Part shown: positions 11,926 through 62,742 of the stretch, one piece after another
Numbering within the stretch: position 1 is the first letter of the stretch
Layout: each line of letters opens with the position of its first letter
Assembly: GCA_900547105.1 (NCBI GenBank)
Contig: URFL01000003.1
Coordinates: 1-64,000 of the forward strand
Source: an uncultured Oscillospiraceae bacterium
GTDB lineage: Bacteria > Bacillota > Clostridia > Oscillospirales > Acutalibacteraceae
Length of the DNA: 64,000 bases
Direction: 5' to 3'
The notes under the pieces: generated by a model
Told to the model about the DNA's origin: nothing
What the model saw: only the letters and a program-made list of their open reading frames with translations
Databases searched by the model: none
Made by a program: the position numbers and the translations under genes

Positions 11926-11945
11926 TCCTCCGTTTCTGATATTTG

Positions 11946-11988: not shown

Positions 11989-12003
11989 TTCATCTGTCGG
12001 GCA

Positions 12004-12042
12004 CAAAAAACAGGCGGCTGCAAAACGCAGTCGCCTGTTTTC
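12004..12042 (-). terminator. rho-independent terminator downstream of gatB
   Basis: aaaaaacaggcg…cgcctgtttt. Confidence 0.7.
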
Positions 12043-12053
12043 TATACGTTGAT

Positions 12054-13466
12054 TTAGCCGATGATCTCCAAAATCATCTGCTCGGCGGTTTTGGCGTCGG
12101 CGGAACCGCGGGTGGCTTTCATCACACCGCCCACCAGCGCTTTCAGCGCTTTTTCCTTGCCGCCGCGATAGTCCGCGACCGCATTCGGGTTGCCCGCCAC
12201 GACCTCTTCGCAGATCGCTTTCAGTGCGGAATCGTCTACGCCCGCCATATCCTCTTCGCTCAGCAGCTCGCTGACGCGTTTGCCGGTATCCATCATCTTT
12301 TCCAGCGTGGATTTGGCAAGATTCATCTTCAGCTTGCCGCTATCCAGCAGCGCCACCAGCTCGTTGAGGTGTGCCGCCGGCAGCGGCACATTCCCGGTTT
12401 CCTTGTCCGCTTCGGTTTCGATACGGCGGAAAATCTGGCCGATGATGAAGTTGGATACTGTGCGGGGCGACACGCCTTGCGCCGCCTCGTCGAAATATTC
12501 CGCGATCTTGCGGTATTTCACCAGCATCTGCGCATCCTTTTCGGGGATGCCCCACTCGCCGGTGTACCGTGCCATACGCGCATCCGGCAGCTCGGGCAGC
12601 TCGGCGCGCAGCGCCTCGATCTCCTCGTCCGAAGTAGCGATGGTCACCAGATCGGGGTCCTGGAAATAGCGATAATCGTGCGCGTCCTCTTTGGTGCGCA
12701 TGCTTTCGGTCATACCGGATTCCTCGTCATACCGGCGGGTTTCCTGCACCACCGCTTCGCCGCTTTCGATCAGATCGATCTGACGGTCAAATTCGTACGC
12801 CACCGCTTGGGCGATATGAGCGAACGAGTTCATGTTTTTGATCTCGGTGCGGGTGCCGAACTTGTCGGAGCCGACCGGCCGCACCGAAATGTTGACATCG
12901 CTGCGCATGGAACCTTCCTGCATCCGGCAATCCGACACCCCAATGGTGCGCATCAACAGCTGCAGTTTTTCCATGTACTCGCGAATTTCGTCCACGCTGC
13001 GGAAATCCGGCTCGGACACGATCTCGATCAGCGGCACGCCGCCGCGGTTGTAGTCCACAAAGGTGTCGCCGTGGCTGTGCACCAGCTTGCCCGCATCCTC
13101 TTCGATATGGATGTGATTCAGCCGGATGCGGCGGCCGGAAGACAGCTCCACATAGCCTTCCACACACAGCGGGTGGTACAGCTCGGAGATCTGATACGCC
13201 TTCGCCAGATCGGGATACACATAGTTTTTGCGATCCATCTTGGCGATATGGCTGATGCGGCAGTTGGTGACCAACCCCGCTTTGATGGCATAACGCACCA
13301 CCTCATGATTCAGCTTGGGCAGTGTGCCGGGCAAGCCGATGCAGATGGGGCAGCAGTTGGTGTTGGGTTCGCCGCCGAATTTGGTGGTGCAGCCGCAGAA
13401 AATCTTGGTTTTGGTGGACAGCTCGATATGGGTTTCCAAACCGGCAACCAGTTCGTACTCTCTCAC
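12054..13466 (-). CDS. gatB: Asp-tRNA(Asn)/Glu-tRNA(Gln) amidotransferase subunit B
   Basis: [50 protein letters not shown] is the GatB N-terminus. Confidence 0.97.
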   Translation of the reverse strand: MREYELVAGLETHIELSTKTKIFCGCTTKFGGEPNTNCCPICIGLPGTLPKLNHEVVRYAIKAGLVTNCRISHIAKMDRKNYVYPDLAKAYQISELYHPLCVEGYVELSSGRRIRLNHIHIEEDAGKLVHSHGDTFVDYNRGGVPLIEIVSEPDFRSVDEIREYMEKLQLLMRTIGVSDCRMQEGSMRSDVNISVRPVGSDKFGTRTEIKNMNSFAHIAQAVAYEFDRQIDLIESGEAVVQETRRYDEESGMTESMRTKEDAHDYRYFQDPDLVTIATSDEEIEALRAELPELPDARMARYTGEWGIPEKDAQMLVKYRKIAEYFDEAAQGVSPRTVSNFIIGQIFRRIETEADKETGNVPLPAAHLNELVALLDSGKLKMNLAKSTLEKMMDTGKRVSELLSEEDMAGVDDSALKAICEEVVAGNPNAVADYRGGKEKALKALVGGVMKATRGSADAKTAEQMILEIIG

Positions 13467-14935
13467 AGCGACACACCTCCTTCCACCGGGCGGAGGTTCG
13501 CCGCGCCGGACTGTTCATACTGATAAGCGGCATTCAAAATGGTTGCCTCGCTGAAACGGGGACCGATCAGCTGCATACCGATGGGCAAGCCCTGCTCGTC
13601 CGCGCCGCAGGGCAGCGACACGGCGGGCAGCCCCGCAATGTTCACCGGCACCGTGCAGATGTCGGTTTGATAGGTTTGGATCGGGTCCTGCGTCGACTGC
13701 CCCTCGGGGAACGCCGTCATCGGCACGGTGGGAGCCAAAATCACATCGCAGCTTTCAAACGCCTTATCAAACGCGCGCACGATCACGCCGCGCAGATTCT
13801 GCGCCTTTTTATAGTACGCGTCGTAGTAGCCGGAGCTGAGCACATAGGTTCCCAGCAGGATACGGCGCTGCACCTCTTTGCCAAAGCCCTCGCTGCGGGT
13901 TTTGCAGATCATATCGTGGATGCTGTCGTAATGCGCCGCCTGATAGCCGTAGCGGATACCGTCGTACCGTCCCAGATTGGAGGAAGCCTCCGCGCACGCC
14001 AGAATGTAATACACCGGCAGCGCATAGCTCAGCGACGGCAGCGCAAACTCAACGATTTCGGCGCCCATCGCGCGGTAATTTTCGATTGCTTTTTCCAGCG
14101 CCGCTTTCACGGACGGGGTCAACCCCTCCATATACTCACGCGCCACGCCGATCTTCAACCCGCGAATGTCCTGCCCCAGCGCGTCCGCCGTGGGAGCGCC
14201 CTTGTGACCGGTGGAGGTCGAATCCATCGGGTCATAGGCGGAAATCGCATCGTATACCAGCGCCGCGTCCTCCACCGTTTCCGCCAGCGGACCGATCTGG
14301 TCAAAGCTGGACGCATACGCGATCAAGCCAAAGCGGGAAACCGCGCCATAGGTGGGCTTGAGCCCCACAATACCGCAAAAGCTGGCGGGCTGGCGGATAG
14401 AACCGCCGGTGTCCGACCCCAGCGCAAACGCCGCCAGATGGCCGCCCACCGCCGAAGCGCCGCCGCCCGAGCTGCCGCCCGAAACGTGCGCGTGGTTGTG
14501 CGGGTTGCGCGCCCCACCGTAGCAGGAGGTTTCACAGGACGAGCCCATGGCGAATTCGTCCATATTGGTTTTGCCCAGCAGCACACTGCCCTGCGCTTTC
14601 AGCGTTTTCCACACCGTCGCATCGTAGATGGGGGTGTAGCCCTCCAGAATACGGGAGCAGCAGGTGGTGAGCAGTCCGTTGGTGGAAATATTGTCTTTCA
14701 GCGTCATCGGCACGCCCTCCAACAGGGAGAGCTGCTCTCCGCGGGCGCGCTTTTCGTCCACCCGGCGAGCCGCCGCCAGCGCCTCGTCCGCGGTGATGTG
14801 GACATACGCGTTGAGCGTGGCGTTATCCCGCGCGATCGCGTCCAGATACGCCGTGGTCAGCTCCACACAAGAGAGCTGTCCGGCGGTCAGCTTGTCATGG
14901 ATCGACCGGATCCGGCTGGTACTCATTGTGCACAC
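13463..14935 (-). CDS. gatA: Asp-tRNA(Asn)/Glu-tRNA(Gln) amidotransferase subunit A (amidase family)
   Basis: Amidase signature (…[13 protein letters not shown]…). Overlaps gatB by 4 nt. Confidence 0.97.
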
Positions 14936-27951: not shown

Positions 27952-28809
27952 TCACGCGGACACATCGTGTCCGGTGAGCTGCCGGATCACCGGCAGCTCA
28001 TACGGCGGGAAGTACAACCAATAGGGCTCCTGCTCATACACAAAACAAAGTGCATAATACGACTTGAAATAATACTGGTCGTCCTTCTCCCGAATTTTAT
28101 ACTCCCTGTATGCCGGGCTGTTGTACTTTTCCGGCTTGTTCCATTCGGGCAGATACATTTTCCGGTCGATCGCGCGAATACCGGTGATGCTGTCCAGCGG
28201 GATCGCCCACTTTTGGTGGCCGTCCGCCATATACAGATTACCATCGGCAACAAAGGTTTTCATCTCTTCCGGAATCATCAGCCCTTTGAGCGAACGTTCG
28301 CGCACCATCGCCACCGGCTCACCGTCCTGCACCACATAATCGGACATCAGCACATCCACATTAACCGCCTCGCCGGGCACGCCCAACGCATCATACGCCT
28401 CTGCCATCAGCCGGTCGGCGGCGTTTTCGGCATGGGTAAACACCGCGCTTTCCACCACCGACCGCTTGCGGCTGTACTGCCAAACGGTCAGCGCCGCGCC
28501 AACGATCACCATACCCCCGAACACATAAAACGCCCACGGGATCATCGCGTACAGCTCCGCCAGCGAGGGGCCGCCCTCGTTATTGAGCACCATCGTTACG
28601 CAAACGACCACAGCAACCGCGCACACGCCCCACAAAATCTGCAGCGGCAACGGCAGCGAAATGGATTCCTCCAGCTTGTCCCGTTCCTCTTCGTTTTCGT
28701 CCAGCGCCTGTTCCAGCTCGTCACTGATTTCGGCTACGACCAGCTCGTCCCCATCCAACACATCGTTCTCTTTGTCCGTGGTGATGTCACGCCCCAAAAA
28801 CACTTTCAT
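27952..28809 (-). CDS. hypothetical membrane protein (285 aa, acidic N-terminus, 2-3 TM)
   Basis: MKVFLGRDITTDKENDVLDGDELVVAEISDELEQALDENEEERDKLEES, followed by TM segments. Confidence 0.6.
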   Translation of the reverse strand: MKVFLGRDITTDKENDVLDGDELVVAEISDELEQALDENEEERDKLEESISLPLPLQILWGVCAVAVVVCVTMVLNNEGGPSLAELYAMIPWAFYVFGGMVIVGAALTVWQYSRKRSVVESAVFTHAENAADRLMAEAYDALGVPGEAVNVDVLMSDYVVQDGEPVAMVRERSLKGLMIPEEMKTFVADGNLYMADGHQKWAIPLDSITGIRAIDRKMYLPEWNKPEKYNSPAYREYKIREKDDQYYFKSYYALCFVYEQEPYWLYFPPYELPVIRQLTGHDVSA

Positions 28810-28871
28810 TCGATAACTCCTCCGTTTTTATCGTCCGCCCTTGCCATCGGCGGCAAGGGCGGACAGGTGGG

Positions 28872-30296
28872 TTATTCTTCCGCCGGTTGTTCCGACGCCT
28901 CTTCCTGCGGAGCAGGAGCTTCCGGTGCCGCAGGGGTATCCAGCTCTTTTCCGAGGAACCCGGGGATCTGCATCCCCGCCATTTTGAAGGTTTCGTTCAA
29001 AGGCGGAATGGATTTCATCATGCCGGACAGGAAGTTCGCGGTGGTGGAACCACCCTCCTTGCCGCCCATCGAATCCCAAACCGTCACCTTGTCGATCTTC
29101 AGATTCTTGATCGCTTCCACCTGAATCTTGACCAGTTCCTCGATCTTGTCCGCCAGCATCAGCTGCACCGCTGCGTTGGCGTCGCCGCCCGCTGCCTCCA
29201 CGATTTTCTGGAAGCCTTCGGCCTGTTTCGCCAAAATCTCCTGAGCACCGCGCGCCTGCGCCTCCATGGTGGCGTAGATCGCGTCCGCTTCACCGCGCGC
29301 TTTGCGGCGGGTCTGCTCGGCTTCGGCTTCCGCCTCCAACTCCACCCGCTCTTTTTCGATGCGCGCTTTCACGATAACATCCGCCTGCTGGGTCGCCGCC
29401 TCACGCTCGGCACGCGCCTGCTCGGCCTGTTGCTGTGCAGCATATGCTTCTTCCAACGCCCGCGCTTCGGCGATCCGCTCGGCTGCGGTCGCCCGGCGCA
29501 TAGCCTCGGCCTCCGCCTCGCGACGAGTCGCATCCGACTGCGCCACGGCGGCTTTGGATTCGTTTTCACCGGCGATGGCGGCGGCGTTCGCCTCCGCCAC
29601 CTGAATACGCTGATCCTTGACCGCCTGCGATTCACCGATCGAACCGTCGCGGTTCTTTTCGGCAACCGACTTTTTCGCATCGTTGATCGCCTTGGCGGCC
29701 GCCTCTTTACCCAGCGCCTCGATATACCCCGACTCGTCGGTGATATCGGTCACATTCACGTTGATCAGCCGCAAACCGATCTTTTTCAGCTCGGTCTCCA
29801 CATTGTGGTACACCGCTTCCACAAACTTGTCGCGGTCGGTGTTGATCTCTTCAATATCCATGGTCGCGATGACCAGACGCAGCTGACCGAAGATAATGTC
29901 CTTCGCCAGCTCCTGCACCTCGACCATTTTCAGCCCCAACAGCCGCTCGGCGGCGTTCTGCATAGTACCCGGCTCGGTGGAGATACCCACCGTAAACCGC
30001 GAGGGCACATCCACGCGGATGTTCTGGTGCGACAGCGCGTTGGTCAGATCCACGTTGATGGAAATGGGGGTCAGATCCAGATAATCAAACGATTGGATCA
30101 CCGGCCAGATGAACGCCGCGCCACCGTGGATACACCGTGCCGAGCGCGCCGACCCGTCTTTGTTGGTGCCGACTTTACCGTAGATGACCATGATTTTGTC
30201 GGACGGGCACCGGCGGTACCGCGACAGCAGCACCAGCAGCAGCGAAAACAGCAGCACCCCGACCACGATCAGCAAGATAACAACATTGCTAGGCAT
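28872..30296 (-). CDS. flotillin-like SPFH/band-7 protein (FloT/YuaG family)
   Basis: N-terminal TM anchor, SPFH domain, then a long Ala/Glu-rich coiled-coil (…EAEAEAMRRATAAERIAEARALEEAYAAQQQAEQARAEREAATQQ…). Confidence 0.88.
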   Translation of the reverse strand: MPSNVVILLIVVGVLLFSLLLVLLSRYRRCPSDKIMVIYGKVGTNKDGSARSARCIHGGAAFIWPVIQSFDYLDLTPISINVDLTNALSHQNIRVDVPSRFTVGISTEPGTMQNAAERLLGLKMVEVQELAKDIIFGQLRLVIATMDIEEINTDRDKFVEAVYHNVETELKKIGLRLINVNVTDITDESGYIEALGKEAAAKAINDAKKSVAEKNRDGSIGESQAVKDQRIQVAEANAAAIAGENESKAAVAQSDATRREAEAEAMRRATAAERIAEARALEEAYAAQQQAEQARAEREAATQQADVIVKARIEKERVELEAEAEAEQTRRKARGEADAIYATMEAQARGAQEILAKQAEGFQKIVEAAGGDANAAVQLMLADKIEELVKIQVEAIKNLKIDKVTVWDSMGGKEGGSTTANFLSGMMKSIPPLNETFKMAGMQIPGFLGKELDTPAAPEAPAPQEEASEQPAEE

Positions 30297-30321
30297 ACAA
30301 ACTCCTTCTTTCTCTCTGTTT

Positions 30322-31026
30322 TTATTCTTCGTCCAACGGACGAACCACTAACACATTTTGATTCATCACACCGGTCACCTTGACCATTTCATCGGTGCGA
30401 AGATTGCGTTTGGCGGTGGTCACCGCGCTCAGCTCCACATACCGCTCCTGCAGCGTCATGGTGACTTTGCCGGAACGCTTGCCCTGTGCCGGAATGGGAA
30501 TATACACTTGGGCGGTTTTGCCCACCGCGCCGCGCAGATCCAGATTGCCCTGATCCTGCAGCGACAGGCTCCATTTGATAAACCACGCGGTCAGCAGCAG
30601 CGCCGCGGCGCCGCCCGCCACCGCAATGGCTATGACCGCGGCAGTCGCCAGCGTGGTTTCCGCCAGCGCAATGCCCAACCAGCCGCCAACCGCGAAAAAC
30701 GCCACCAGCCCGCGCACGGTGAACAGTCGCAGCCCCGCCGCGTGGTGCGCCGGATCGTGGGTATCGTGATCGTCTGCGTCATGGTCGTCATGGTCAAAGG
30801 CGTGTTCCGCGCCGTGATCGAACTCGTGCGCGTCGTGATCCCAGCCGTGGTCGCCCAATCCGCTGTGGTCGTCCGCCATTTCTCCGTGATCTGCGTCGTG
30901 ACCGCCCAGCCCGATCAGCAGCAGCACCGTTTGCAGCACCAGCATCACCGTTGCGGGAATCGCCACGACCGCGAAACTCTGCTGCAGCATATTCAGCGCA
31001 TTCCACCAATCATAAAACCATTGCAT
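30322..31026 (-). CDS. NfeD-like membrane protein (YuaF-like flotillin partner) with a His/Asp-rich insert
   Basis: TM segments plus a C-terminal OB-fold-like region (…VGKTAQVYIPIPAQGKRSGKVTMTL…VVRPL). Contains an approximately 60-aa insert, GHDADHGEMADDHSGLGDHGWDHDAHEFDHGAEHAFDHDDHDADDHDTHDPAHH. Confidence 0.75.
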   Translation of the reverse strand: MQWFYDWWNALNMLQQSFAVVAIPATVMLVLQTVLLLIGLGGHDADHGEMADDHSGLGDHGWDHDAHEFDHGAEHAFDHDDHDADDHDTHDPAHHAAGLRLFTVRGLVAFFAVGGWLGIALAETTLATAAVIAIAVAGGAAALLLTAWFIKWSLSLQDQGNLDLRGAVGKTAQVYIPIPAQGKRSGKVTMTLQERYVELSAVTTAKRNLRTDEMVKVTGVMNQNVLVVRPLDEE

Positions 31027-31070
31027 ACGCTTCCCTCCTTATTTTTCACTATATGTCGGCACCCCGACCC

Positions 31071-31646
31071 TTATCCGTTGTCTTCCTGAATCCATTTTTC
31101 CAGCCGTCCCTCCGCCAAATGCTTCATGCGGGATGCTTGATACGCCAGCACCATAATCTCCAGCGCCCGCGCCAGGCACGCCTTGGAATCCAGCTTGGGA
31201 CCGGTGTAATCCGCCAGCTGGCGCTGCACCGCCTCGCGGATTTCGGCGGTGGAGCTGCGCAGATCCGACAGATCCGCCAACAAGCTGCAAAGTCGGTTGT
31301 ACAGCTCGCCCTCGTCGATGATATCGTCCGACACATCCTCGACCGAGCCGTTGACCTTGCCCAGCAGCTGGGCAATTTTCTCCAGCGGCAAACAATCCCG
31401 CAGCACGTTGATGAGAAGAATGCGGGCGATCTGGCGCTGGGTATATTTTTTGCCCACCGGACGGGAAATCCACCCGCGTTTGACCCAGTTTTGGATGGTG
31501 GACGCCTCCAGCCCGGTGATTCCGACAATTTGGGACAGGCTGAGTCCTCCCGCCACATTGCACAGCGACGAAACAGCGGCAAACAATTCTTTGCCCGCGC
31601 TGGGGTCATACGGCATCACGGTGCCGGGTATAGTCGTCAACTGCAT
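31071..31646 (-). CDS. DUF1836-like HTH-domain protein (putative regulator of the flotillin operon)
   Basis: N-terminal MerR-like HTH (LSLSQIVGITGLEASTIQNWVKRGWI). This family commonly lies upstream of floT/nfeD in Firmicutes. Confidence 0.6.
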   Translation of the reverse strand: MQLTTIPGTVMPYDPSAGKELFAAVSSLCNVAGGLSLSQIVGITGLEASTIQNWVKRGWISRPVGKKYTQRQIARILLINVLRDCLPLEKIAQLLGKVNGSVEDVSDDIIDEGELYNRLCSLLADLSDLRSSTAEIREAVQRQLADYTGPKLDSKACLARALEIMVLAYQASRMKHLAEGRLEKWIQEDNG

Positions 31647-34165: not shown

Positions 34166-34405
34166 AATACAAAATCCCCTTTCGCGAAATTTCGTGAACG
34201 CCTTTATTATAGTGTGTTCCTGTCGGAATGGCAATATCCAAATTGTAAAGAATTTGATAATTTTTTGACGATTATTGAGAATTCTGCATATTCGCGCGTA
34301 AAATCCTGCAAATATGGCTCATCCTCGCGACAAGAAAAAACACTGGACTACATCTATCTTTCATAAGTAGAAGTAGCCCAGCAGTCCTAATTTGTTTCTC
34401 AAGTG

Positions 34406-34858
34406 CTAGATCGCCGCTTGCGTTTTCTTGTCAAAAATCCGATTTACAGATTTCACCTTATTATCCAGTTGGCGAACGATTTCGTTGCCCTCTTCTGCAA
34501 TCTCTCTGGCATCCTCTTCGCAGTACGGGTTCTTCATCAGGCTATGGATATATGCATCTCGGCGGTCCTTCCATGTCCAAATCTCATCAATAAATGAGAG
34601 CGGAATTCTTTTACGAATTTGCTTATCCGTAAAAGGTGCGCTGTCATGTATTTTATTCAGCTTGATGCTAAGTTTCAATGGGTGACCTTGTTTATTTGTT
34701 AACTTTATGGTCCCCTCATGACGCAAAACCGATTCAGTTCTGTCTTCGATCATGGCGTATTCGATAAAAACTGCCTCAAGCCAAAAGCCATGCCTCAGTG
34801 CTTTGGAAAGCTTCACCTTGTATTGGGCGTATGTATATTGCTTGTCCGTGTTGTTCAT
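34406..34858 (-). CDS. hypothetical protein (150 aa), distal gene of the low-GC island
   Basis: ORF with RBS ggagggg before MNNTDKQYTYAQYKVKLSKALRHGFWLEAVFIEYAMIEDRTE…. No domain recognised. Codon usage is AT-richer than the flanking genes. Confidence 0.6.
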   Translation of the reverse strand: MNNTDKQYTYAQYKVKLSKALRHGFWLEAVFIEYAMIEDRTESVLRHEGTIKLTNKQGHPLKLSIKLNKIHDSAPFTDKQIRKRIPLSFIDEIWTWKDRRDAYIHSLMKNPYCEEDAREIAEEGNEIVRQLDNKVKSVNRIFDKKTQAAI

Positions 34859-34941
34859 ACCGTTCCCCTCCGGTTTGTTTTCTCCTTTTGGCACCTCACC
34901 GGAAAGTATATATTCTCACATGTGCTCACCTTTTGTGCCGA

Positions 34942-37341
34942 TCACGGCTTTTTAAAATAAAGAAAGTCACTATATTCCGTTGTGTCAGTATTTCCGTTAG
35001 TGTGAGTATACACTTTTATCGTACAATTACCGTTGTTATCGTATGTATATTCCGTTTCACATATAGCGTCGTTAGAATACACACACACTTCTTTCACACG
35101 GTTTCCGTTATCATCATATTTGTACTCCGTCGCGTTCATAAAGCCGCTATACCCTGTACAAACTTCTTTTATACAGCTTCCTTTATTATCGTATGTGTAT
35201 CTCGTCGTACTTATGCCGCCACCAGCACCTGTAAATACTGCCTCCACACAATTTGCATTGTCATCATATTTGTATTCCGTTGTGCTTGAATAGTCTCTGG
35301 AATTCGCATACACTTCCTTTACACAATTTCCATTGCTATCGTATTCGTATTCCGTTGTGCTTGTATCTCCACTATACCCTGTACAGACTTCTTTCACGCA
35401 GTTTCCAGTATTATCATATTCGTACTCCGTTGTGCTTATATCACCATCAAAGGCCGTGTCAACTTTTTTCACACAATTTCCATTGTTATCGTATTTGTAT
35501 TCTGTCGTACTTATTCTACCATTATATTCCGTGTGTACTTCACATTGCGGCTTCGAAAGAATCGAGCGGTAATAGTTCACAGCATCCTTATAGCCGCCCG
35601 CTGCATAAAATTGAGCACGGGCTTCTCCGTACTTTCCGGCGTTGTATAACTCCATACCCGCATTATACTTGTAACTTGGAATAACGACTGTTGTCAGCAC
35701 AACAACAAGGGTAATGCAAGCAGCAATAATCGGCATCCCGATAGCAAAGAATTTTCTGCGCGCCTTTTTGGCTTTTTCCTCTTCTATTTTAATCTGCTCA
35801 ATCTTCTTTTGGCAGGCATACACCTGCTCATCCGCATCTTTCCAGCCAGAAATGGATTGAAACAACTCGATGGCTTCCTCATAAGCGCTGCTATCCTCGC
35901 CCACCATCTGTGACTTGGCCGAACCATATAGGGCATCTTTTCGACAGCACTCTGCTTTGTCGAAGCACTCCTCCGCAAGCTTCTTCGAATCTTTAAATTC
36001 TCCAACACTCTGAAAAGCCTGCGCAGCCGCTTTATACGCCTCCTCCGTATCGGCGGAATTCATGGCGTTGACCGCCCCGTTATATACATTGGTCAGTCGC
36101 TCATTTTCGTTACGTTGATTGATATACGCAATATAGTCGTTCATTGTTTTCGTCAAGGTGGGGTCGGCAAACCGCAACACCTTATGAAAATTGCTGCTTT
36201 TATCAAAGGGGTGTTTACAGTTCTTTAATTGCCCTTGCTCGCGCACACGCAGCTCCGCCATCAGTTTGCCCAAATACGCGCGCGCATTTTCCGGATCCTG
36301 ATCCAGCACTTTTTCACAATAGGCATCCGCCTCCTGCCAATCACCGTCTTCCAAAAACATAAAAACCCGTTTCAAAAGCGGTTCCACGCTTACATTACCG
36401 CTATCCATCACCACGGTTTCCTGAACCGTTTTCTTGGGCATATCCGCCGAAACAATTTTCTTAATTCCCCGAATCAAATCCTGCATAAACCCGAGTTTGG
36501 ACATATCTTGCGCCTGTAGATGAGAAAATTCTTCGGGCAAATCGTAAGGATCCATATCCTTGTAAGCGGGAATCAGCGTTTTTTTGCCGCCGCTGTTCTT
36601 CACCAATGCCAAATACCGGCTCCACTCGTTTTTCACCCAGACAGCATTAAAATACTCCGGCTTTGTACCCAGTACTACCATAACCTTTGCACTGTTAAGA
36701 GCAGCAAATATATACGGCTCATACGCCGTGCCCAGTTTGTCCTCCAAAGTGATGCGAGCAAAGAACACCTTGAAGCCTTCCTGCGTCAGCTGGTGGTACA
36801 TATCGTTGGCAAGCACACTGTCTTGGGTACGACGACCGCTAGCATCCGTTTCCTTGTAACAGATAAATATGTCAAAAGGTTGTTCTTTTTGAGAGATAGC
36901 CAAAATACCCTTTTGAATCTCGTTGATGGTTTGTGCTTCCGACTCGTAAATCTCTCGCTGAACAGCATCGGCATATCGTAGGGCAGATTTATAGTTATCA
37001 TCATCAAAGACCGATGTAAACTGCGCTCGATTTACCGTAGGTATACGCTTATGCGAACCCGGATCCTCCACATATTCAATACCATAGCGGCAAAGCACCA
37101 GAGACCAATACGCCTCGGCATCCGTCTTGTCCTCGGTCAGGATTTGCTCATATATCCCCATGGCTTTGTCATATTCATTGCTGCGCCGAAAATGATTGGC
37201 TCGATCATAAAGATTTGCCCGCCGATCATCATCCAATTTGGGCAAGGTTTGCTTGGTGCCGCAGCTGTCGCAAACAGCTACGGTGTCACCGGGGTGAAGT
37301 TCCAGTGTCCCTCCGCACATTTTGCATTTGAATACTGTCAT
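34942..37341 (-). CDS. multidomain TIR-domain protein: N-terminal zinc ribbon, TIR domain, TPR-like helical region, single TM helix, C-terminal YD-like tandem repeats (799 aa)
   Basis: Zinc ribbon MTVFKCKMCGGTLELHPGDTVAVCDSCGTKQTLP. TIR-like block FDIFICYKETDASGRRTQDSVLANDMYHQLTQEGFKVFFARITLEDKLGTAYEPYIFAALNSAKVMVVLGTKPEYFNAVWVKNEWSRYLAL. TPR-like region (…AYCEKVLDQDPENARAYLGKLMAELR…). TM helix FFAIGMPIIAACITLVVVLTTVVIP. About 7.5 repeats of around 25 aa (ISTTEYEYDNTGNCVKEVCTGYSGD), matching the YxYDxxGN YD-repeat core. RBS aaggag. Confidence 0.8.
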   Translation of the reverse strand: MTVFKCKMCGGTLELHPGDTVAVCDSCGTKQTLPKLDDDRRANLYDRANHFRRSNEYDKAMGIYEQILTEDKTDAEAYWSLVLCRYGIEYVEDPGSHKRIPTVNRAQFTSVFDDDNYKSALRYADAVQREIYESEAQTINEIQKGILAISQKEQPFDIFICYKETDASGRRTQDSVLANDMYHQLTQEGFKVFFARITLEDKLGTAYEPYIFAALNSAKVMVVLGTKPEYFNAVWVKNEWSRYLALVKNSGGKKTLIPAYKDMDPYDLPEEFSHLQAQDMSKLGFMQDLIRGIKKIVSADMPKKTVQETVVMDSGNVSVEPLLKRVFMFLEDGDWQEADAYCEKVLDQDPENARAYLGKLMAELRVREQGQLKNCKHPFDKSSNFHKVLRFADPTLTKTMNDYIAYINQRNENERLTNVYNGAVNAMNSADTEEAYKAAAQAFQSVGEFKDSKKLAEECFDKAECCRKDALYGSAKSQMVGEDSSAYEEAIELFQSISGWKDADEQVYACQKKIEQIKIEEEKAKKARRKFFAIGMPIIAACITLVVVLTTVVIPSYKYNAGMELYNAGKYGEARAQFYAAGGYKDAVNYYRSILSKPQCEVHTEYNGRISTTEYKYDNNGNCVKKVDTAFDGDISTTEYEYDNTGNCVKEVCTGYSGDTSTTEYEYDSNGNCVKEVYANSRDYSSTTEYKYDDNANCVEAVFTGAGGGISTTRYTYDNKGSCIKEVCTGYSGFMNATEYKYDDNGNRVKEVCVYSNDAICETEYTYDNNGNCTIKVYTHTNGNTDTTEYSDFLYFKKP
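34955..35545. repeat. 75-bp tandem DNA repeats encoding the YD-like repeats of the TIR protein
   Basis: Visible near-periodic repetition (…acacaatttccattgNtatcgtatttgtattcNgtcgtacttat…). Explains the spurious + strand ORFs at 35033-35684. Confidence 0.8.
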
Positions 37342-37417
37342 TGAAGATTACTCCTTAATGAAACGAGATTTATGAAGAGTGCTTAGATATCAGGGCTGTT
37401 ATATTTATAAAATATAT

Positions 37418-38086
37418 CTATTTCAGCATTTTGCATTTTTTATTTCGCTCATCTAAAAGCGAATGAAGTTCAGCGACAACCTCCGTTTTATCGACAGCAG
37501 CTTTCAATTCGATCATCTTTTCTGTGATCCGGCTTTCTAAACCAGCGAGTTGCTCATGGCTCACAGGATCGGAGAACCGAATTTTCTCCGCAAGCTGCCC
37601 AAGCGCCGATTTTATGGCTGTATCCGTTTCTGTATCAGCCAACAGTTCAACCTCCGTCTGCAACTGCTTGATATAGAAAGTCTTTTTCTGTATCTTTGTA
37701 TCCACTCGTTCAATTTCGCTGCGTCCGGCATCCGAAGCAATCATACAAACCGCAGATACCCCGGTTATCACTGCACAAGCCACAACGGCGCTCCAAGCCG
37801 GCAGCGCCGAAACGAACAGAAACACTGCAAGCGCAACAACCTGAATCACCAGATAGACCGCGCCAATATAAACGACCGGAAAGCCAAGGAACTTGCTTTT
37901 CATTGTTTCTTCGCGTTCAAGCGCTATTTTCCAAATAAACAGCTGTGCTGCAAAGGCTACCACGGTGAATCCGTAGGCAATCCAAAACGCCGCGGTTTTA
38001 GCCGTGGGCACCACAAACGCAACAACGCTTATCAATACAAACAGAATGCCGAGAACGGCATATCCCTTTGCACTATTCTTTTTCAT
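37418..38086 (-). CDS. membrane protein (4 TM) with C-terminal cytoplasmic coiled-coil; partner of the SPFH/zinc-ribbon protein
   Basis: Start MKKNSAKGYAVLGILFVLISVVAFVV at 38086 (RBS agggagg), separated by 2 nt from the stop of the upstream SPFH gene. Coiled-coil tail (…QLQTEVELLADTETDTAIKSALGQLAEKIRF…). Confidence 0.7.
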   Translation of the reverse strand: MKKNSAKGYAVLGILFVLISVVAFVVPTAKTAAFWIAYGFTVVAFAAQLFIWKIALEREETMKSKFLGFPVVYIGAVYLVIQVVALAVFLFVSALPAWSAVVACAVITGVSAVCMIASDAGRSEIERVDTKIQKKTFYIKQLQTEVELLADTETDTAIKSALGQLAEKIRFSDPVSHEQLAGLESRITEKMIELKAAVDKTEVVAELHSLLDERNKKCKMLK

Positions 38087-38088
38087 TG

Positions 38089-39258
38089 TCAGCCCTCCCT
38101 CTTCGCGCCGCACTGCGGGCAAAACTTGCCGGACTTGATAAACTTAAAGCCACACTGCGGGCAAGTATCCGCGGATGTCTGCCGGGCACCGCATTCATCA
38201 CAAAACGCCGCGCCCGGAGCTAACTCGGCACCACACTGATCGCAAAAGCGATTGACCGCTTGCGGTTGTGTGGTCATTCCCGCAAATGCGTCAGAAACCG
38301 CACCGCCGACCACTCCACCAACTGTGCCGCCAACGCCAGCCATCATTCCCAGTCCGATACCCATATTGGAAAACTGCCCTGCGCCCTCATTTTTCGCAGC
38401 ATCCTGTGCCACATCGAATCCTCGCTCCTGCTGGTAGGTATAGCCTTCCTGCATTCGCTTGGTGGCTTGTGCCTGAGAATCGATAACAACCTTTTGCGCC
38501 TCGGTCTGTGCGTGGATCACATCGGTCTGCTGTTTCAGCTTTGCCTCGGCTATATCGGCATACTGTCGGAAATGCAGCTCCTTGAATTTTTCATACTGCG
38601 GGTCACCGTCCGGCTTGACCACCGTAGTAACATAGAATCGTTTGAGTTGTACACCGTAATCAAGAAAATCGGGAATCAATCGCTGCTGAATGTCCTCTGA
38701 AAATGTTTCAAGACTTTCATCAATCTCAAAAATGTTGATAGCATTAGCACGCATTGCCTGAGCGATATAGGTTTTCACCTTTGTCATCAGGATACTGCGA
38801 AAATAGGCGGTCAGCCGCTCACGAGTCAGAACATGCTCTGTGCCCACCAATTTAATTAACAATTTACGGGAATCGTCCACGCAAAGCGACATCTCACCGC
38901 TCGCGCCGATAGAAAGCGGGAAATGATATGTAGGTTCTACATACTGCACCTTGCTGTCAGTTCCCCAGCGAATCGCCATCTGTTCGGTCTTATTGATAAA
39001 ATAGACCTCGCAATGAAATGCGCTCACACCACCGGTTGGAATATTTATCAAGCGTCGAAAAATTGGAATGTTTTCCGTTTCTAGCGTATACCGTCCCGGT
39101 CCAAACAGGTCAAGCGCCTGCCCATTTAGGAAAAGAATAGCCTCCTGCGATTCGTGGACAATCAACTGAGATGATGTGTTAAAGTCCTCGCAGGGATGTT
39201 TCCATACAAAAGTGCTGTTATCCCCTTCGTATTTGATAACAGAGGCAATATTTGCCAT
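38089..39258 (-). CDS. SPFH (band-7)-domain protein with C-terminal double zinc ribbon (COG4260 / B. subtilis YdjI-like, 'virion-core-protein-like')
   Basis: MANIASVIKYEGDNSTFVWKHPCEDFNTSSQLIVHESQEAILFLNGQALDLFGPGRYTLETENIP is the characteristic N-terminus of this family. Gly-rich linker, then CDQCGAEL…CDECGA…CPQCGFKF…CPQCGA. RBS gaggggg. Confidence 0.85.
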   Translation of the reverse strand: MANIASVIKYEGDNSTFVWKHPCEDFNTSSQLIVHESQEAILFLNGQALDLFGPGRYTLETENIPIFRRLINIPTGGVSAFHCEVYFINKTEQMAIRWGTDSKVQYVEPTYHFPLSIGASGEMSLCVDDSRKLLIKLVGTEHVLTRERLTAYFRSILMTKVKTYIAQAMRANAINIFEIDESLETFSEDIQQRLIPDFLDYGVQLKRFYVTTVVKPDGDPQYEKFKELHFRQYADIAEAKLKQQTDVIHAQTEAQKVVIDSQAQATKRMQEGYTYQQERGFDVAQDAAKNEGAGQFSNMGIGLGMMAGVGGTVGGVVGGAVSDAFAGMTTQPQAVNRFCDQCGAELAPGAAFCDECGARQTSADTCPQCGFKFIKSGKFCPQCGAKREG

Positions 39259-39391
39259 ATCGCAACCCCCTCAATTTGTTATTGTGTACTTTTTCAAACT
39301 CCTATGTAAATTTTAACTTGTTGACATTATACTACTAAAAGGCTGAAATCTCAACTGTTTTCGGGAAAATAGTTTCAACATACAGAACACC

Positions 39392-39428
39392 CCAAAAAGG
39401 CAGGCTCCGGTGGGAGCCTGCCTTTTGC
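39392..39428 (-). terminator. rho-independent terminator of tsaD (also insulates the island promoter)
   Basis: aaaaaggcaggctccggtgggagcctgcctttt. Confidence 0.8.
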
Positions 39429-39444
39429 GTTTCTATTCTCTATT

Positions 39445-53357: not shown

Positions 53358-54404
53358 ATGAACACGCGCATGGTATCGCTTTTCACCGTGGCTGCACTGT
53401 GCCTGTCGCTGTGCGCCTGTGGCGGGCAACCTGGAACAGATGTGGAGCTTGGCGCCAGCCGCATGACCGAAACGGCGACGCTCCCTGTTTCCAAAACGGC
53501 AACCCTTTCCACAAACAATGCGGGAGCGACCACCGCCCCCTCCAAAAAGCCGGCACACCACACCACCCAACCCGTTGTCTCCACCCGCGCTATGGAAAGG
53601 TTACACCGCGGCAACAGCACGTGGCAAGAGGTTCCTATCGAAGACATGAAGTACATATCCTTATGGTGTTTTTGGACGTTTGATTTGCGAAAGGTCATTA
53701 CCTCCGCCGACTATGTTTTTAGCGGAACGATCCTCAGCCGCAAAGAATATGAAGTGTCTTTGCCGGATAAAAAAGGAGAATCTAACGGACCATATAGCCG
53801 GTCGATTCTCGAAGTGGAAATACACCATACATATCACGGAAAGCCACCGGTAAAAGGGAACATTATTCGTGTGTGTTACACCCATTCCGTATCGGAACAG
53901 ATCGGCAGCGCGCTGTCGATTGACGATAACGGAGAATATGTTTTTGTCACCTATGCGCTGAACGACAAGTACGCCAAAGAAATGAAGAAAAAATTTCCCG
54001 ACGGCTATGCAGAAGAGGAGTTGTATGCGGATGTCGCTTTCTCCACTCCTTTCTATGATCTGTTCGCTATCGAAGATGGAAAAGTGATTTCTTATGCCGG
54101 ATATTTTGACTGGGATAAAAAGGTGATGAAAAAAGCAACCTATCCCGTAAGATCGAACAAGATTGAACACGGGCGCAGCGGCGGTCCTTATATTGCGTTG
54201 TCCAAAAAAGACTTTGATACGGCGTTTGCCAACCTGTTCAAAAATCCGGAAACTTTGCCCACTGCCAGCACATGGGCGCACAACGACACCACCACGACCA
54301 CAACTACCACCCGCCAGACGAGCGCTGCCACAAAAGCGGGGCTGCCCACCGTGAACACCGACCCCACCATCGTGTGGTCAGACCCGGAGGACGGAGAGTC
54401 ATGA
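53358..54404 (+). CDS. hypothetical lipoprotein (348 aa)
   Basis: MNTRMVSLFTVAALCLSLCA-C lipobox. Promoter TTGAAA-17-TATATT at about 53295-53323, RBS aggagggg. C-terminal Thr-rich linker (TTTTTTTTRQT). Confidence 0.7.
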   Translation: MNTRMVSLFTVAALCLSLCACGGQPGTDVELGASRMTETATLPVSKTATLSTNNAGATTAPSKKPAHHTTQPVVSTRAMERLHRGNSTWQEVPIEDMKYISLWCFWTFDLRKVITSADYVFSGTILSRKEYEVSLPDKKGESNGPYSRSILEVEIHHTYHGKPPVKGNIIRVCYTHSVSEQIGSALSIDDNGEYVFVTYALNDKYAKEMKKKFPDGYAEEELYADVAFSTPFYDLFAIEDGKVISYAGYFDWDKKVMKKATYPVRSNKIEHGRSGGPYIALSKKDFDTAFANLFKNPETLPTASTWAHNDTTTTTTTTRQTSAATKAGLPTVNTDPTIVWSDPEDGES

Positions 54405-55249
54405 TGAAAAAGGAATGGCAAAGTGGGGGCTTGTGTCTGCTCATACTCGGCGGTTTGCTGGCGGGCTGTCTTAGCGGGTGCCGGTCAACCGAACCTCTTC
54501 CGAATAAGGTAACGACAACGAGTGTTCATACTGTGAGCACCACCGCAACAGCCCCCGTCGATACGATGACGAAAGCACCATTCAAAACCGAACCGGATCC
54601 AACAGGCTATGTAGATTTAGTTGACTCCGAAGACTGGCCTTGCCGCGAGTTTAATTCCGTGGAGGGTTTTATCCATTGGATTGAAAACCCTAACTTCAAA
54701 ATGGAAAAAAGTCCGCTTGAGCCGGAAAAAGATGAACATGGATACGACGTATATAAAAGAAGTTATTTTGATGCCCTGTATCCGGACTATCAACAGATGT
54801 TTGCGGTAGACCGGTTTTACATGCTGCCGGATGTGCCGTCTGATTGGGAGTTAACAGATATACAGATAAGAAGTCATAATACCGACTTTTATTATCTGGA
54901 TAATCAAAAAAACGAATATTATCTATCCTATAATTATTCCGAATCCTCCCATAATCTCAATAGTGTTGAAAGTTCAGAGTTTTTTGCTTTTAAAAAAATA
55001 TTAAACGATCAAGAATATTATGTTATAGATTTTGATCTACAAGCAGTAGCCCAAAAGAAGGGCAGTTTTATTTTTACTCTTGTAAATGGTTATCTCTGCG
55101 AATTTGCTATGCAAACATATAATCCGGACGAAAAAGATTCCGCTACAGAAGGATATGAACGGGTTGTTTACAGTGAGAATACGGATTTAACGGATGTTGT
55201 CAGCAAGATGAAATTTAAGCGGATCGATTTACCCCCACTGAAACAGTAG
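54401..55249 (+). CDS. hypothetical lipoprotein (282 aa), AT-richer than its surroundings
   Basis: MMKKEWQSGGLCLLILGGLLAGCLSGC lipobox. ATGA overlap with the upstream lipoprotein gene. Confidence 0.65.
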   Translation: MMKKEWQSGGLCLLILGGLLAGCLSGCRSTEPLPNKVTTTSVHTVSTTATAPVDTMTKAPFKTEPDPTGYVDLVDSEDWPCREFNSVEGFIHWIENPNFKMEKSPLEPEKDEHGYDVYKRSYFDALYPDYQQMFAVDRFYMLPDVPSDWELTDIQIRSHNTDFYYLDNQKNEYYLSYNYSESSHNLNSVESSEFFAFKKILNDQEYYVIDFDLQAVAQKKGSFIFTLVNGYLCEFAMQTYNPDEKDSATEGYERVVYSENTDLTDVVSKMKFKRIDLPPLKQ

Positions 55250-55460: not shown

Positions 55461-57341
55461 ATGAGAACCAAACAATTCAAAGCCGAATCCAAGCGGTTGC
55501 TGGATCTGATGATCCATTCTATCTATACCCATAAAGAAATCTTTCTGCGCGAGCTGATCTCCAACGCCAGCGACGCGATGGACAAGCTGTACTACCGCTC
55601 GCTGAAAGAGCATTTGCAGGATGTGGATCGCGAAGATTTTGCCATCGACATTGCGGTGGACAAAGAGCACCGCACCCTGACCATTTGGGATACCGGCATC
55701 GGCATGACCGAAGAGGAGCTGGAAAACAACCTCGGCGTGATCGCCAAGAGCGGCTCGTTTGCTTTCAAAAATGAGCAGGAGGAGAAAACCGACGATGTGG
55801 ACATCATCGGTCAGTTTGGCGTGGGCTTTTATTCCGCGTTCATGGTGAGCGATCTGGTCACAGTCGTCACCCGCGCCTACGGCAGCGACCAGGCGTATCG
55901 CTGGGAATCCAAAGGGGTCGAGGGCTACACGGTGGAGCCGTGCGAAAAAGACAGCGTCGGCACCCAGATCATTTTGCATATCAAAGAGAACACCGAAGAC
56001 GAAAACTACGACGAATTTTTGGACAGCTACCGTTTGCAGGGGCTGATCAAAAAATATTCCGACTACATCCGCTACCCCATCCGCATGGATGTGGAATCCC
56101 GCCGTCCGGTCGAGGGCAAAGAGGGCGAGTACGAAACCGTCACCGAGACCAAAACCATCAACAGCATGGTACCGATCTGGCGCAAAAACAAAAGCGAGAT
56201 CCAGCCGGAGGAATACAACGCCTTTTACAAGGATAAATTCATGGATTACGAGGATCCGGCGCGGGTCATCCACAGCCGCACCGAGGGCGCGGCCACCTAT
56301 CAGGCGCTGTTGTTCATCCCGTCCCACGCGCCGTACAACTACTACACCCGCGAATACGAAAAGGGCTTGCAGCTGTACGCCAGCGGCGTGCTGATCATGG
56401 ACAAATGTGCCGATCTGCTGCCCGACCATTACAGCTTTGTCAAAGGTTTGGTCGATTCGCAGGATCTGTCGCTGAACATCTCGCGCGAGATGCTGCAGCA
56501 CGATCGCCAGCTGAAGCTGATCGCCGCGCGACTGGAGAAAAAGATCCACAGCGAGCTGCTCTCCATGCTGCAAAACGAGCGCGAAACCTATGAAACCTTC
56601 TTCAAAAACTTCGGCTTGCAGTTGAAATACGGCGTATACAGCGATTTCGGAATGCACAAGGATGAGCTGCAGGATCTGCTGCTGTTCTATTCGTCCCACG
56701 AAAAGAAGCTGACCACGCTGCAGGAATACATCGACCGTATGCCGGAAGGACAGCCCTGCATCTACTACGCGTGCGGCGAAACGCCGGACAAGATCGAGCG
56801 GATGCCACAAACCGAGGCGGTACGCGACAAGGGCTACGAGATCTTGTATCTGACCGACGATGTGGACGAATTCGCGCTGAAATCGCTGCACACCTTTGCG
56901 GACAAGGAGTTCAAATCCGTGTCCGGCGGTGATTTGGGCTTTGAGCCGGAAAAGGCGGAAGAATCCACCGAAAACAAAGACCTGTTCGCCTTTATGGCGG
57001 AGGCGCTGTCCGGCAAGGTGAAAGCGGTGCGCGGGTCGCAGCGGCTGAAAACCCACCCGGTTTGTCTGACCGCCGAGGGCGAAGTGTCGCTGGAGATGGA
57101 AAAGGTGCTGGATGCGATGCCGGGTGACCACGCGATCAAAGCCCAGCGGGTGCTGGAGATCAACGAAGCGCACCCCATCTTCCAAAAGCTGACCGCGCTG
57201 TACCAAAACGACAAAGACGAGCTGAAAGAATACAGCGAGCTGCTGTACGATCAGGCGGCGCTGATGGAGGGGCTGTCGATCGACGATCCGGTGGCGTTTG
57301 CCGAAAAAGTGTGCAAGCTGATGGCGCAGGATAACGCATGA
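55461..57341 (+). CDS. htpG: molecular chaperone HtpG (Hsp90)
   Basis: …[15 protein letters not shown]… (GHKL N-terminal motif). 626 aa. Confidence 0.96.
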
Positions 57342-60127: not shown

Positions 60128-60670
60128 TTATTTCCCGCTATCGGGGGACAGGGAGATGGGGTCTTTGTCGCGGGTCCAATAGTCGTGCCCTTTTTCCTTC
60201 GGCTGCCACAAGGTGGATTTTGTTCCCATCTCAAACGGGAAGATCAACAACAACGGCGTTTTATCTTCCATAGCCCACTGTATTAGTTCCTTAAAAATAG
60301 TAAAATATCCTCTACCACTGCGCGGAGCCACCCATGGTTGTGCCAGATTGTTGTTTTCCTCTCCGGGAATCACTTCCCATGGGATCGGCAAAGACAGGTT
60401 TTGGATATCGTAAACCGCCTCGGACAAGGAATGCTTTTGCAGCTCGAGCGGAATCTGATCCAGCTCCCGCTGAAGCTCTTGCAAATGTTCGTTTTCTACG
60501 ATGCCGTGATCGCACAAATCGCGCAGCAGCCGCGGGAACCGCTCCCCCCAATGCCCTACCCCTTCCAGATGATAGGACACCGTAGAAAAGAAGCAATAAA
60601 CCATATCGCCCCATCCGATCCTGCTAATAAACCCCGCGCGCCCCTTTTTTTGCACCATAAGATACACCAT
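60128..60670 (-). CDS. hypothetical protein, paralog 1 of a 180-aa family (immunity-protein-like)
   Basis: MVYLMVQKKGRAGFISRIGWGDMVYCFFSTVSYHLEGVGHWGERFPRLLRDLCDHGIVENEHLQELQRELDQIP…LLLIFPFEMGTKSTLWQPKEKGHDYWTRDKDPISLSPDSGK. About 75% identical to 61487..62038. The 5' and 3' DNA ends are near-identical between the two. Confidence 0.7.
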   Translation of the reverse strand: MVYLMVQKKGRAGFISRIGWGDMVYCFFSTVSYHLEGVGHWGERFPRLLRDLCDHGIVENEHLQELQRELDQIPLELQKHSLSEAVYDIQNLSLPIPWEVIPGEENNNLAQPWVAPRSGRGYFTIFKELIQWAMEDKTPLLLIFPFEMGTKSTLWQPKEKGHDYWTRDKDPISLSPDSGK

Positions 60671-60689
60671 AATGGTTCCTCCTAATCGA

Positions 60690-61415: not shown

Positions 61416-61486
61416 TCCTCCTGCTTATCCGTCAATGTTTCTTGCGGACGTTGTATGTTTTTTCACAACTCCAAAGCGTATTTTCG

Positions 61487-62721: not shown

Positions 62722-62742
62722 AGGTGCTTTCCTCTTTTCACA

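Follow-up and report, generated by a model that had tools for sequence, protein, structure and literature searches.

The present analysis concerns a 64,000-nucleotide stretch of DNA from an uncultured Oscillospiraceae bacterium (assembly GCA_900547105.1, contig URFL01000003.1, positions 1 to 64,000), referred to below as the window, and within it a strain-variable low-GC island that occupies the slot between tsaD and pckG (34314-39387, 5,074 bp). All four genes of the island are on the minus strand and encode, in the order of transcription, an SPFH protein, a membrane protein with four transmembrane (TM) helices (the 4TM protein), a TIR protein of 799 aa, and an HEPN-domain protein of 150 aa. 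We give about an even chance to the reading that the island is a mobile, membrane-embedded conflict module, probably directed against phages, that is built round the receptor-like TIR protein. The latter is predicted from its sequence to span the membrane once, with its zinc-ribbon, TPR, TIR, and helical parts before the TM helix and a variable binding domain after it.

Regarding the TIR protein (34942-37341), its domains were assigned from Pfam matches, more than 8,000 scored homologues, family alignments, and an AlphaFold2 (AF2) model. The protein begins with a zinc ribbon of the form CxxC...CxxC (residues 6-27) within a stretch of TPR-like helices (residues 1-135; 36937-37341), followed by the TIR domain (residues 158-282; 36496-36870), which matches TIR_2 with an E value of 2.1e-11 and 44.8 bits against a Pfam curated cutoff of 28. 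Its sequence shows FD[IV]FI[CS]Y at strand A and WVKNEW in helix C, in which Glu239, four residues past the Trp, is the putative catalytic residue (GAG, 36625-36627; the codon was checked). The columns of W235, N238, E239, and W240 are invariant in alignment A2 (13 sequences), those of W235 and E239 in all of alignments A1, A2, and A3, and the motif W-x-[KRQ]-[NS]-E-W was present in 139 of 150 cluster representatives. When a profile of 13 family TIR regions was searched against the PDB, the best sequence match was a TLR2/15 TIR domain (E 3e-4), the WCQYE (WCxxE) motif of which aligns with WVKNEW. The TIR call made in the original prediction is therefore upheld, since the domain passes the curated threshold and contains the canonical glutamate.

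The TIR domain is followed by cytoplasmic TPR/Sel1-like helical repeats and a coiled coil (residues 318-525; 35767-36390), a region that was all helical in the AF2 model with a pLDDT of approximately 90 and that gave TPR_19 and TPR_2 matches in Pfam as well as TPR matches in Foldseek. Hydropathy indicated a single TM helix (residues 531-556; 35674-35751). Because the net charge is +4 before this helix and +1 after it, the N-terminus is predicted to lie inside and the C-terminus outside the cell, and this topology is independently supported because homologues bear typical Gram-positive extracellular binding domains past the TM helix. The remainder is a YD/RHS-type beta-hairpin repeat ectodomain (34951-35562; RHS_repeat E 2.7e-10), with a period of 25 aa that is also visible in the DNA as a 75-nt repeat family. 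All parts of the architecture that had been read from the 799-aa sequence, namely, a zinc ribbon, TIR domain, TPR-like region, one TM helix, and YD-like repeats, were recovered. The ectodomain consists of approximately eight repeats (about 200 aa), the protein stops 2 residues past the last strand, and the beta region was modeled with a pLDDT of approximately 90. An allele from the lineage of the window (P0295) has the same sequence at residues 1-643 and is shorter by exactly one in-register 25-aa YD repeat.

The ectodomain resembles Rhs/YD toxins and teneurins in that it matches the RHS_repeat and YD_repeat models and, in Foldseek, the shells of Tse5, RhsA, TcC, and teneurin (E 1e-8 to 1e-6), with these being partial local matches at a TM-score of approximately 0.1. 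It differs from them in its length of only about 200 aa and in having no Rhs core motif, closed shell, or C-terminal toxin. An Rhs toxin shell was rejected on these grounds, and an open beta-sheet binding surface is more likely.

Family-wide, there is almost no variation in the cytoplasmic part, whereas the ectodomain is exchanged or hypermutated. In the alignments, identity over residues 1-300 is 70-100%, with long invariant runs, and the sequence past the TM helix is unalignable between subfamilies. The N-terminal 135 residues retrieved 4,858 clusters at 50% identity with E<=1e-3 (2,319 with E<=1e-30), and the best 150 of these 4,858 clusters ranged in length between 204 and 2,330 aa. TIR was present in 49 of 53 representatives, the C-termini of which contained DUF6273 (15), LRR_5 (9), Flg_new (6), RCC1 (4), LRR_8 (2), WG repeats (1), or PASTA (1). 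The island protein is not an isolated case and belongs to a very large family with swapping ectodomains.

Hypermutation was detected with a script that searches for repeat pairs in which mismatches fall at the adenines of one copy. Five related loci contained the template repeat (TR) and variable repeat (VR) of a diversity-generating retroelement (DGR), with 81-100% of mismatches at template adenines; the cassettes are at 2676-3508 in L017, 12422-13250 in L020, 6520-7339 in L026, 8376-13012 in L030, and 12424-13243 in L056. The VR in all five sits at the 3' end of TIR genes, in the DUF6273 C-terminus, and a bAvd gene, fragmentary in L020, adjoins the TR. Only L026 and L056 gave a confirmed RVT_1 reverse transcriptase, and in L030 one TR serves two TIR genes. 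DUF6273 has been described as a C-type-lectin-like receptor-binding domain and a DGR target in gut phages (PMC10743442; 10.1101/2024.10.15.618418). The window itself has no VR/TR pair with adenine-specific mismatches, and its own TIR gene is without a DGR.

The first gene of the island encodes the 389-aa SPFH protein (38089-39258), which comprises an SPFH/Band_7_1 domain (residues 26-217; 38608-39183; Pfam E 6e-35), a Gly/Met-rich low-complexity segment at approximately residues 295-330, and a C-terminal double zinc ribbon (DZR; residues 339-384; 38107-38244; E 1e-9). Hydropathy gave no TM helix in this protein, and a PDB sequence search with it returned nothing useful. YdjI for comparison was taken from a B. 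subtilis-type pspA-ydjGHI locus (L112), which was retrieved from a metagenome with a published ydjG primer (PMC8581546). In BLASTP, the SPFH protein and YdjI share 27% identity over 215 aa (E 1e-16), and their C-terminal zinc ribbons also align (E 3e-5), in agreement with the earlier description of a YdjI-like SPFH protein ending in a zinc ribbon. The ATG of the second gene, encoding the 222-aa 4TM protein (37418-38086; open reading frame [ORF] and hydropathy), was likewise correctly placed 2 nt past the SPFH stop codon, and the two genes are probably translationally coupled because of this spacing. Both termini of the 4TM protein are predicted to be cytoplasmic, and its helical coiled-coil tail of approximately 100 aa, which has an R[FY]SDP motif, is conserved among homologues. 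Although 1,804 homologues were found, the 4TM protein matched no family in Pfam, NCBIfam, PADLOC, or PHROGs.

A pattern scan with one genome per species gave at least 567 loci that encode relatives of the TIR protein, nearly all of them in gut or rumen Clostridia. Linkage was assessed in 79 loci kept from species-representative genomes, in which the SPFH and 4TM genes were sought by tblastn; 60 of these had at least 3 kb on both sides of the TIR gene and were regarded as decidable. The pair lay beside the TIR gene on the same strand, usually directly upstream, in 50 of the 60, and these loci come from different families of Clostridia with the same gene order. Two or three tandem TIR paralogues were present in 15 loci. 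The functional core consists of the SPFH, 4TM, and TIR genes because the 150-aa gene recurs in only two loci and its relatives are found elsewhere; the conserved unit is accordingly smaller than the four genes originally proposed. Searches of 2.9 million viral contigs yielded one related locus, PHROGs contained no family for the island proteins, and no TIR homologue was found on plasmids, and a phage- or plasmid-borne origin of the TIR gene was rejected on this basis. Two related loci with 66-75% identity were noted far outside Clostridia, in metagenome-assembled genomes labeled as Sphaerochaetaceae (L063) and Thermoguttaceae (L076); either these loci were transferred recently or the bins are contaminated.

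The closest relatives of the SPFH (91% identity) and 4TM (approximately 70%) proteins of the window are encoded on small integrative or mobilisable elements that carry an integrase, Mob_Pre, resolvase, and TnpV. The third gene in L094 and L097 encodes a protein of 347 or 354 aa that has no TIR domain and matches the TIR protein only in the N-terminal zinc-ribbon/TPR stretch (29-34% identity, E 1e-5 to 1e-7), and a third gene of this type is followed by that of a protein of 153 aa, which contains an RNEITH motif and weakly matches HEPN_MAE_28990. The plasmid pNP21 of Butyrivibrio fibrisolvens (NZ_CP146965.1; L110) carries a further triad at 6700-10053, beside YoeB/RelB and a restriction S subunit. 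It comprises an SPFH-DZR protein with 68% identity to that of the window, a 4TM gene that was split by a frameshift or duplication into pieces of 109 and 145 aa, and a 464-aa protein that has a zinc ribbon, TPR, and a coiled coil but no TIR domain. Since these non-TIR third genes on integrative elements and on pNP21 share it, the zinc-ribbon/TPR module appears, by sequence comparison, to behave as an adaptor that travels with SPFH and 4TM. On this view, SPFH and 4TM would make up a platform whose clients can be exchanged.

Genes inserted between 4TM and TIR, or located just downstream, were counted in the genome loci. They encode HEPN pEK499_p136 (5 members), HEPN_MAE_28990 (1), stand-alone TIR (3), DUF2971 (3), DUF4365 (2), SIR2_2 (1), and DUF4062 (1), the last of which is a TIR-like NADase (10.64898/2026.05.01.722283). 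The 126 flanking ORFs included 11 tyrosine integrases and 3 resolvases, together with single PADLOC matches to SoFic, PDC candidate systems, DRT-type reverse transcriptases, pAgo, Cas1, and WYL.

The fourth gene of the island (34406-34858) had been left as encoding an unknown protein of 150 aa, and is now identified as encoding an HEPN-domain protein. The protein shows the four-helix HEPN fold, an invariant EDR at residues 38-40, and an Rx4H motif (codons 34544-34561), R100 and H105 of which are invariant in 20 family members. The protein itself matched no Pfam HEPN profile above the threshold and a PDB sequence search with its profile returned nothing useful; members of its family gave weak matches to HEPN_Cthe2314 (1.2e-3), RiboL-PSP (5.5e-3), and Apea (1.9e-2). 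It represents a new small HEPN family with 34 detected members, and differs from HEPN toxins such as AbiA HEPN, HEPN-MNT, Csm6, and RnlA/LsoA in having no MNT, CARF, or other partner domain. The gene is only loosely linked to the module. A role as a dedicated effector or core part was rejected, with a homologue being linked in two of the 79 loci and relatives adjoining DUF6273 proteins (in a BREX island), a Big_2/Big_3 surface protein, or a metallophosphatase. In L099-L102 (approximately 3566-14459), a homologue lies between two DUF6273 proteins, and this group is located 3' of a DUF2201/AAA_5 pair and directly 5' of a BREX operon (BrxA, BrxB, BrxC, and PglX).

The island is foreign in composition and accessory because its composition is atypical and sister strains hold one of two cargoes in the same slot. 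Its GC content is 45.5% versus 56.8% in the remainder of the window. Sliding-window GC was 0.40-0.51 at approximately 34.0-39.4 kb and 0.55-0.70 in the flanks, and windows of the same size as the island taken outside it had a mean of 0.570 (sd 0.021, minimum 0.522). The tetranucleotide distance to the rest of the window was 0.418 for the island versus 0.148 +/- 0.026 (maximum 0.253) for other windows, and GC at third codon positions (GC3) was 0.48-0.53 in the four island genes and 0.73-0.78 in six flanking genes. The original prediction of a horizontally acquired low-GC island with four co-directional genes is thus well founded, with GC, GC3, and tetranucleotide distance all being strongly atypical and the cargo of the single slot varying between strains. 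Its limits, previously set at 34240 and 39440, overshoot the junctions by approximately 50-75 bp on each side.

These junctions were mapped by aligning the window with same-species contigs that were retrieved through exact pckG and tsaD proteins. In blastn comparisons with L012 and L011, homology to strains with other cargo ends at 39388 on the tsaD side and restarts at 34313 on the pckG side. Among contigs with identical pckG or tsaD proteins, the same slot holds these four genes in L009, L013, L108, and L109 (the window and L013 are 100% identical over 9 kb), and in L008, L010-L012, and L014 it holds an LRR_5/dockerin gene in the opposite orientation together with an HTH_3 gene. A conserved core-genome operon, which would have spoken for a resident envelope-stress function, is not what the locus contains, as strains with identical tsaD and pckG proteins have either the island or the other cargo. 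The latter measures 2,167 bp in L012 (11067-13233) and encodes a 548-aa LRR_5/dockerin surface protein and a 111-aa HTH_3 regulator; L011 has an additional 768-aa LRR_5/fn3 protein following pckG. The exact allele of the window was found in 225 index blocks of the assembly collection, and the 24 contigs examined were all from European Nucleotide Archive (ENA) metagenome assemblies. Att-like direct repeats and an integrase were sought at the island borders and none was found, and flanking homologous recombination is therefore more likely than site-specific integration as the route of acquisition. The pckG promoter (34206-34234) and the tsaD terminator hairpin (39395-39426), which had been named as the bounding elements, were both located, each in a conserved flank. 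A sigma-70-like promoter, TTGAGA-17-TATAAT (39326-39354, minus strand), which is a consensus match only (11/12 positions in a consensus scan), sits within the island approximately 68 nt 5' of the SPFH ATG. An Rfam search gave no RNA match.

TIR enzymes, including SARM1, plant TNLs, AbTir, ThsB, TIR-STING, and TIR-SAVED, are activated by oligomerization and need the helix-C glutamate. SPFH proteins assemble at membranes into large oligomers, by which client proteins are corralled. In the case of YdjI/SamI, membrane partners recruit the protein into a complex that senses stress (PMC8581546; 10.64898/2026.02.06.704340). Regarding the formation of a complex, its trigger, its enzymatic output, and its biological role, we infer the following course for the conflict module. 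The SPFH oligomer and 4TM protein may build a platform beneath the membrane, comparable with the one that B. subtilis YdjI/SamI makes together with its membrane partners. The shared N-terminal zinc-ribbon/TPR adaptor of the receptor would dock at this platform, which would keep individual receptors separate. If the platform were disturbed, or if a multivalent ligand outside the cell (for example, a phage particle or some other foreign surface structure) were bound, the receptors would cluster and their TIR domains would be united, such that NAD+ would be cleaved via Glu239 and the growth of the attacked cell would stop. The HEPN protein may serve as an optional second effector, presumably an RNase. 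A role in abortive infection or signaling, as suggested at the outset, would be in keeping with this course.

None of the systems in PADLOC-DB v2 (2023) matched the island, and its SPFH, 4TM, and HEPN proteins had no match at all in that database. NCBIfam and PHROGs likewise gave no match at the level of a system. Searches of open-access full text returned no description linking SPFH/Band-7 with TIR, anti-phage defense, or HEPN, nor one linking DGRs with TIR, an absence that is not proof. The earlier statement that no described system corresponds to the island is consistent with these results, and its sensing architecture is, as far as could be found, undescribed. As a form of TIR-based conflict system, the module could qualify as a new category if its function is confirmed. 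It shares the canonical W-x3-E TIR glutamate with the established TIR defense systems (Thoeris ThsB/ThsA types I-XI, TIR-STING, TIR-SAVED, and SPARTA). Like these systems, it is accessory, mobile, and strain-variable, has relatives accompanied by HEPN, SIR2, and TIR-like genes, and is predicted to be activated by oligomerization. Unlike Thoeris and the others, it has no ThsA-type or other messenger-sensing effector, and its TIR domain, which is linked to an SPFH/4TM pair, is part of a fusion with a TM helix and a binding domain outside the cell in place of a cytoplasmic sensor.

The suggested likeness to the B. subtilis pspA-ydjGHI (samGHI) module holds only for the SPFH protein, which has the YdjI-type layout of an SPFH domain, low-complexity segment, and C-terminal zinc ribbon. 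In both modules one partner is polytopic, and the other has a zinc ribbon at its N-terminus and a single TM helix as its anchor, but the likeness does not extend to these proteins as such. No relationship was found between the 4TM protein and YdjH, which has a TPM domain (BLASTP E 1.9; no TPM_phosphatase match), and the TIR protein aligns with YdjG only in the N-terminal zinc ribbon (31% over 35 aa, E 0.017), with the former continuing into TPR, TIR, and an ectodomain and the latter into a second zinc ribbon, an NTF2-like domain, and a C-terminal TM helix. Gene order also differs, and the island is mobile, whereas pspA-ydjGHI belongs to the core sigma-W regulon. No pspA was found within or next to the island, including the same locus in other assemblies, in a search that did not extend to the remainder of the 64-kb window.

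Considering its overall layout, the receptor-like protein resembles animal Toll-like receptors in combining a single membrane pass, a repeat-type extracellular binding domain (LRR_5 in nine of the 53 representatives), and a cytoplasmic TIR domain. The polarity is inverted, with the TIR domain being N-terminal and the ectodomain C-terminal without a signal peptide, and the bacterial protein has an extra zinc-ribbon/TPR adaptor and, in the family, many non-LRR ectodomains. The parallel is an architectural analogy only and does not imply the common descent of the whole receptor. Another resemblance concerns the DGR-diversified C-type-lectin targets, which include the 'putative antigen sensors' of multicellular bacteria (PMC10907252; PMC7159879). 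A comparable arrangement is found in the five related loci described above, in which a bAvd-TR(-RT) cassette, where RT denotes the reverse transcriptase, rewrites the DUF6273 C-terminus of a conflict-effector protein. The described antigen sensors are reportedly cytoplasmic STAND-NTPase proteins of cyanobacteria and similar organisms, whereas here the diversified domain is predicted to be extracellular, with TIR as the effector and gut Clostridia as the hosts.

Several other explanations were considered. The module may be a Thoeris-like variant, in which the TIR domain, instead of depleting NAD+ itself, makes an ADP-ribose-derived messenger that activates the 4TM protein for membrane disruption or activates the HEPN RNase. 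Many bacterial TIR systems signal to effectors, and a 2025 survey predicts 29 Thoeris types, several of which have TM-helix effectors of unknown domain (10.64898/2025.12.03.692087). The conserved cytoplasmic tail of the 4TM protein, the weak ThsB and Thoeris type III ThcB4 matches across the TIR domain (the latter with 27.8 bits versus an NCBIfam cutoff of 220), and the HEPN, SIR2, and other effector genes inserted in the module are consistent with such a variant. However, none of the messenger-sensing domains SLOG, Macro, SAVED, CARF, and STING was found in the four proteins with Pfam, PADLOC, and NCBIfam, the 150-aa HEPN protein is too small for a sensor domain, and the 4TM protein cannot depend on a TIR product because SPFH and 4TM also travel with TIR-less third genes; we regard a Thoeris-like mechanism as unlikely. 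The possibility that the four genes are chance neighbors in a recombination hotspot and do not work together is very slight. The loose association of the HEPN gene and the gaps of 76 nt before the TIR gene and 83 nt before the HEPN gene would fit it, but not the conserved order and strand of SPFH, 4TM, and TIR in most decidable loci from different families of Clostridia, nor the presence of one promoter-like site before the set and no strong terminator inside.

Two readings retain a membrane or surface function and dispense with killing. The island may be a mobile YdjGHI/SamGHI-type module for envelope stress or membrane organization, with TIR acting as a protein-interaction scaffold and not as an immune enzyme; the homology of the SPFH protein to YdjI, the zinc ribbon and single TM anchor shared by the third gene and YdjG, and the existence of triads with non-enzymatic coiled-coil or TM third genes argue for this view. 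We nevertheless think it rather unlikely: pspA is missing within and beside the island, the 4TM protein has no TPM domain, the module is an accessory one that varies between strains and is tied to mobile elements, the catalytic glutamate is invariant, and inserted HEPN, SIR2, and TIR genes as well as DGR-hypermutated ectodomains are unexpected for a housekeeping stress system. Alternatively, the TIR protein may be a surface receptor or adhesin for host, dietary, or neighboring-cell ligands that signals inward without killing, for example, in niche sensing or contact-dependent competition. In favor of this view, LRR_5, Flg_new, C-type-lectin-like, PASTA, RCC1, and YD domains are of the kind that Gram-positive bacteria typically use for binding at their surface, and many cellular DGR targets are adhesins. 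The other cargo of the hotspot likewise encodes a surface protein (LRR_5/dockerin), and the family is found essentially only in Clostridia of the gut and rumen. Adhesion leaves a highly constrained TIR domain with its catalytic glutamate unexplained, as it does the inserted HEPN, SIR2, and DUF4062 genes and carriage on small integrative elements and plasmids beside toxin-antitoxin and restriction-modification genes, and we consider this explanation improbable.

A number of results weigh against the conflict module that we favor. The AF2 model, built from a 31-sequence alignment, had a pLDDT below 50 at residues 198-210 and 226-281, probably due to the near invariance of the alignment there; the TIR core was not folded confidently, and the catalytic competence of the TIR domain is for this reason presumed from its sequence motifs. 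The PADLOC match of the TIR domain to ThsB1 is weak and sub-threshold (E 1.3e-3, 15.9 bits), which gives no direct tie to a validated system. The pair is missing from 10 of the 60 decidable loci with a TIR receptor, and thus the SPFH/4TM scaffold is not obligatory; the HEPN family is mostly found outside such modules, and the defense genes in the flanks are singletons. Cell killing in response to extracellular contact would also be costly, and we know of no bacterial precedent for it.

A broader interpretation, which we put forward tentatively and hold to be possible though doubtful, is that the family represents a prokaryotic class of surface immune receptors in the style of Toll-like receptors, in which an interchangeable and sometimes DGR-hypermutated ectodomain senses an extracellular non-self ligand, such as a phage particle, and switches on a TIR NADase within an SPFH platform. 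If so, this would be, as far as we know, the first bacterial defense shown to sense an invader outside the cell and couple this to TIR, and some of its members would have a built-in mechanism of somatic diversification. To our knowledge, known bacterial TIR systems sense infection from inside the cell, and coupling a TIR enzyme to an exchangeable, in some cases DGR-hypermutated, binding domain outside the cell would bring a new sensing logic into prokaryotic immunity and amount to a striking architectural parallel to Toll-like receptors. SPFH/flotillin-type scaffolds, the bacterial roles of which are still debated, would in addition gain a concrete client. Since gut Clostridia of humans and animals harbor the family in abundance, with relatives in at least 567 species genomes, it may shape phage-host dynamics in the microbiome.

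Other parts of the window also contained genes of interest. Beside pckG on the minus strand (approximately 28800-31646), a second SPFH system belongs to the core genome and is present in every strain, with or without the island. It comprises a DUF1836/MerR-like gene (31071-31646), the gene of a 234-aa His/Asp-rich membrane protein with no Pfam match (30322-31026), and a Band_7 flotillin-like gene of 474 aa. Immediately 5' of the HSP90/htpG gene (55461-57341), a low-GC (0.46-0.49) pair of ORFs on the plus strand (53358-55249) encodes two proteins (348 and 325 aa) that match no Pfam family. A second low-GC stretch (0.47-0.53) on the minus strand (60128-63312) contains a tandem of five small genes (180, 241, 183, 197, and 189 aa), two of which encode Imm70 polymorphic-toxin immunity proteins (PF15601, E 1.6e-18 and 5.6e-17), and looks like an orphan immunity-gene cluster.

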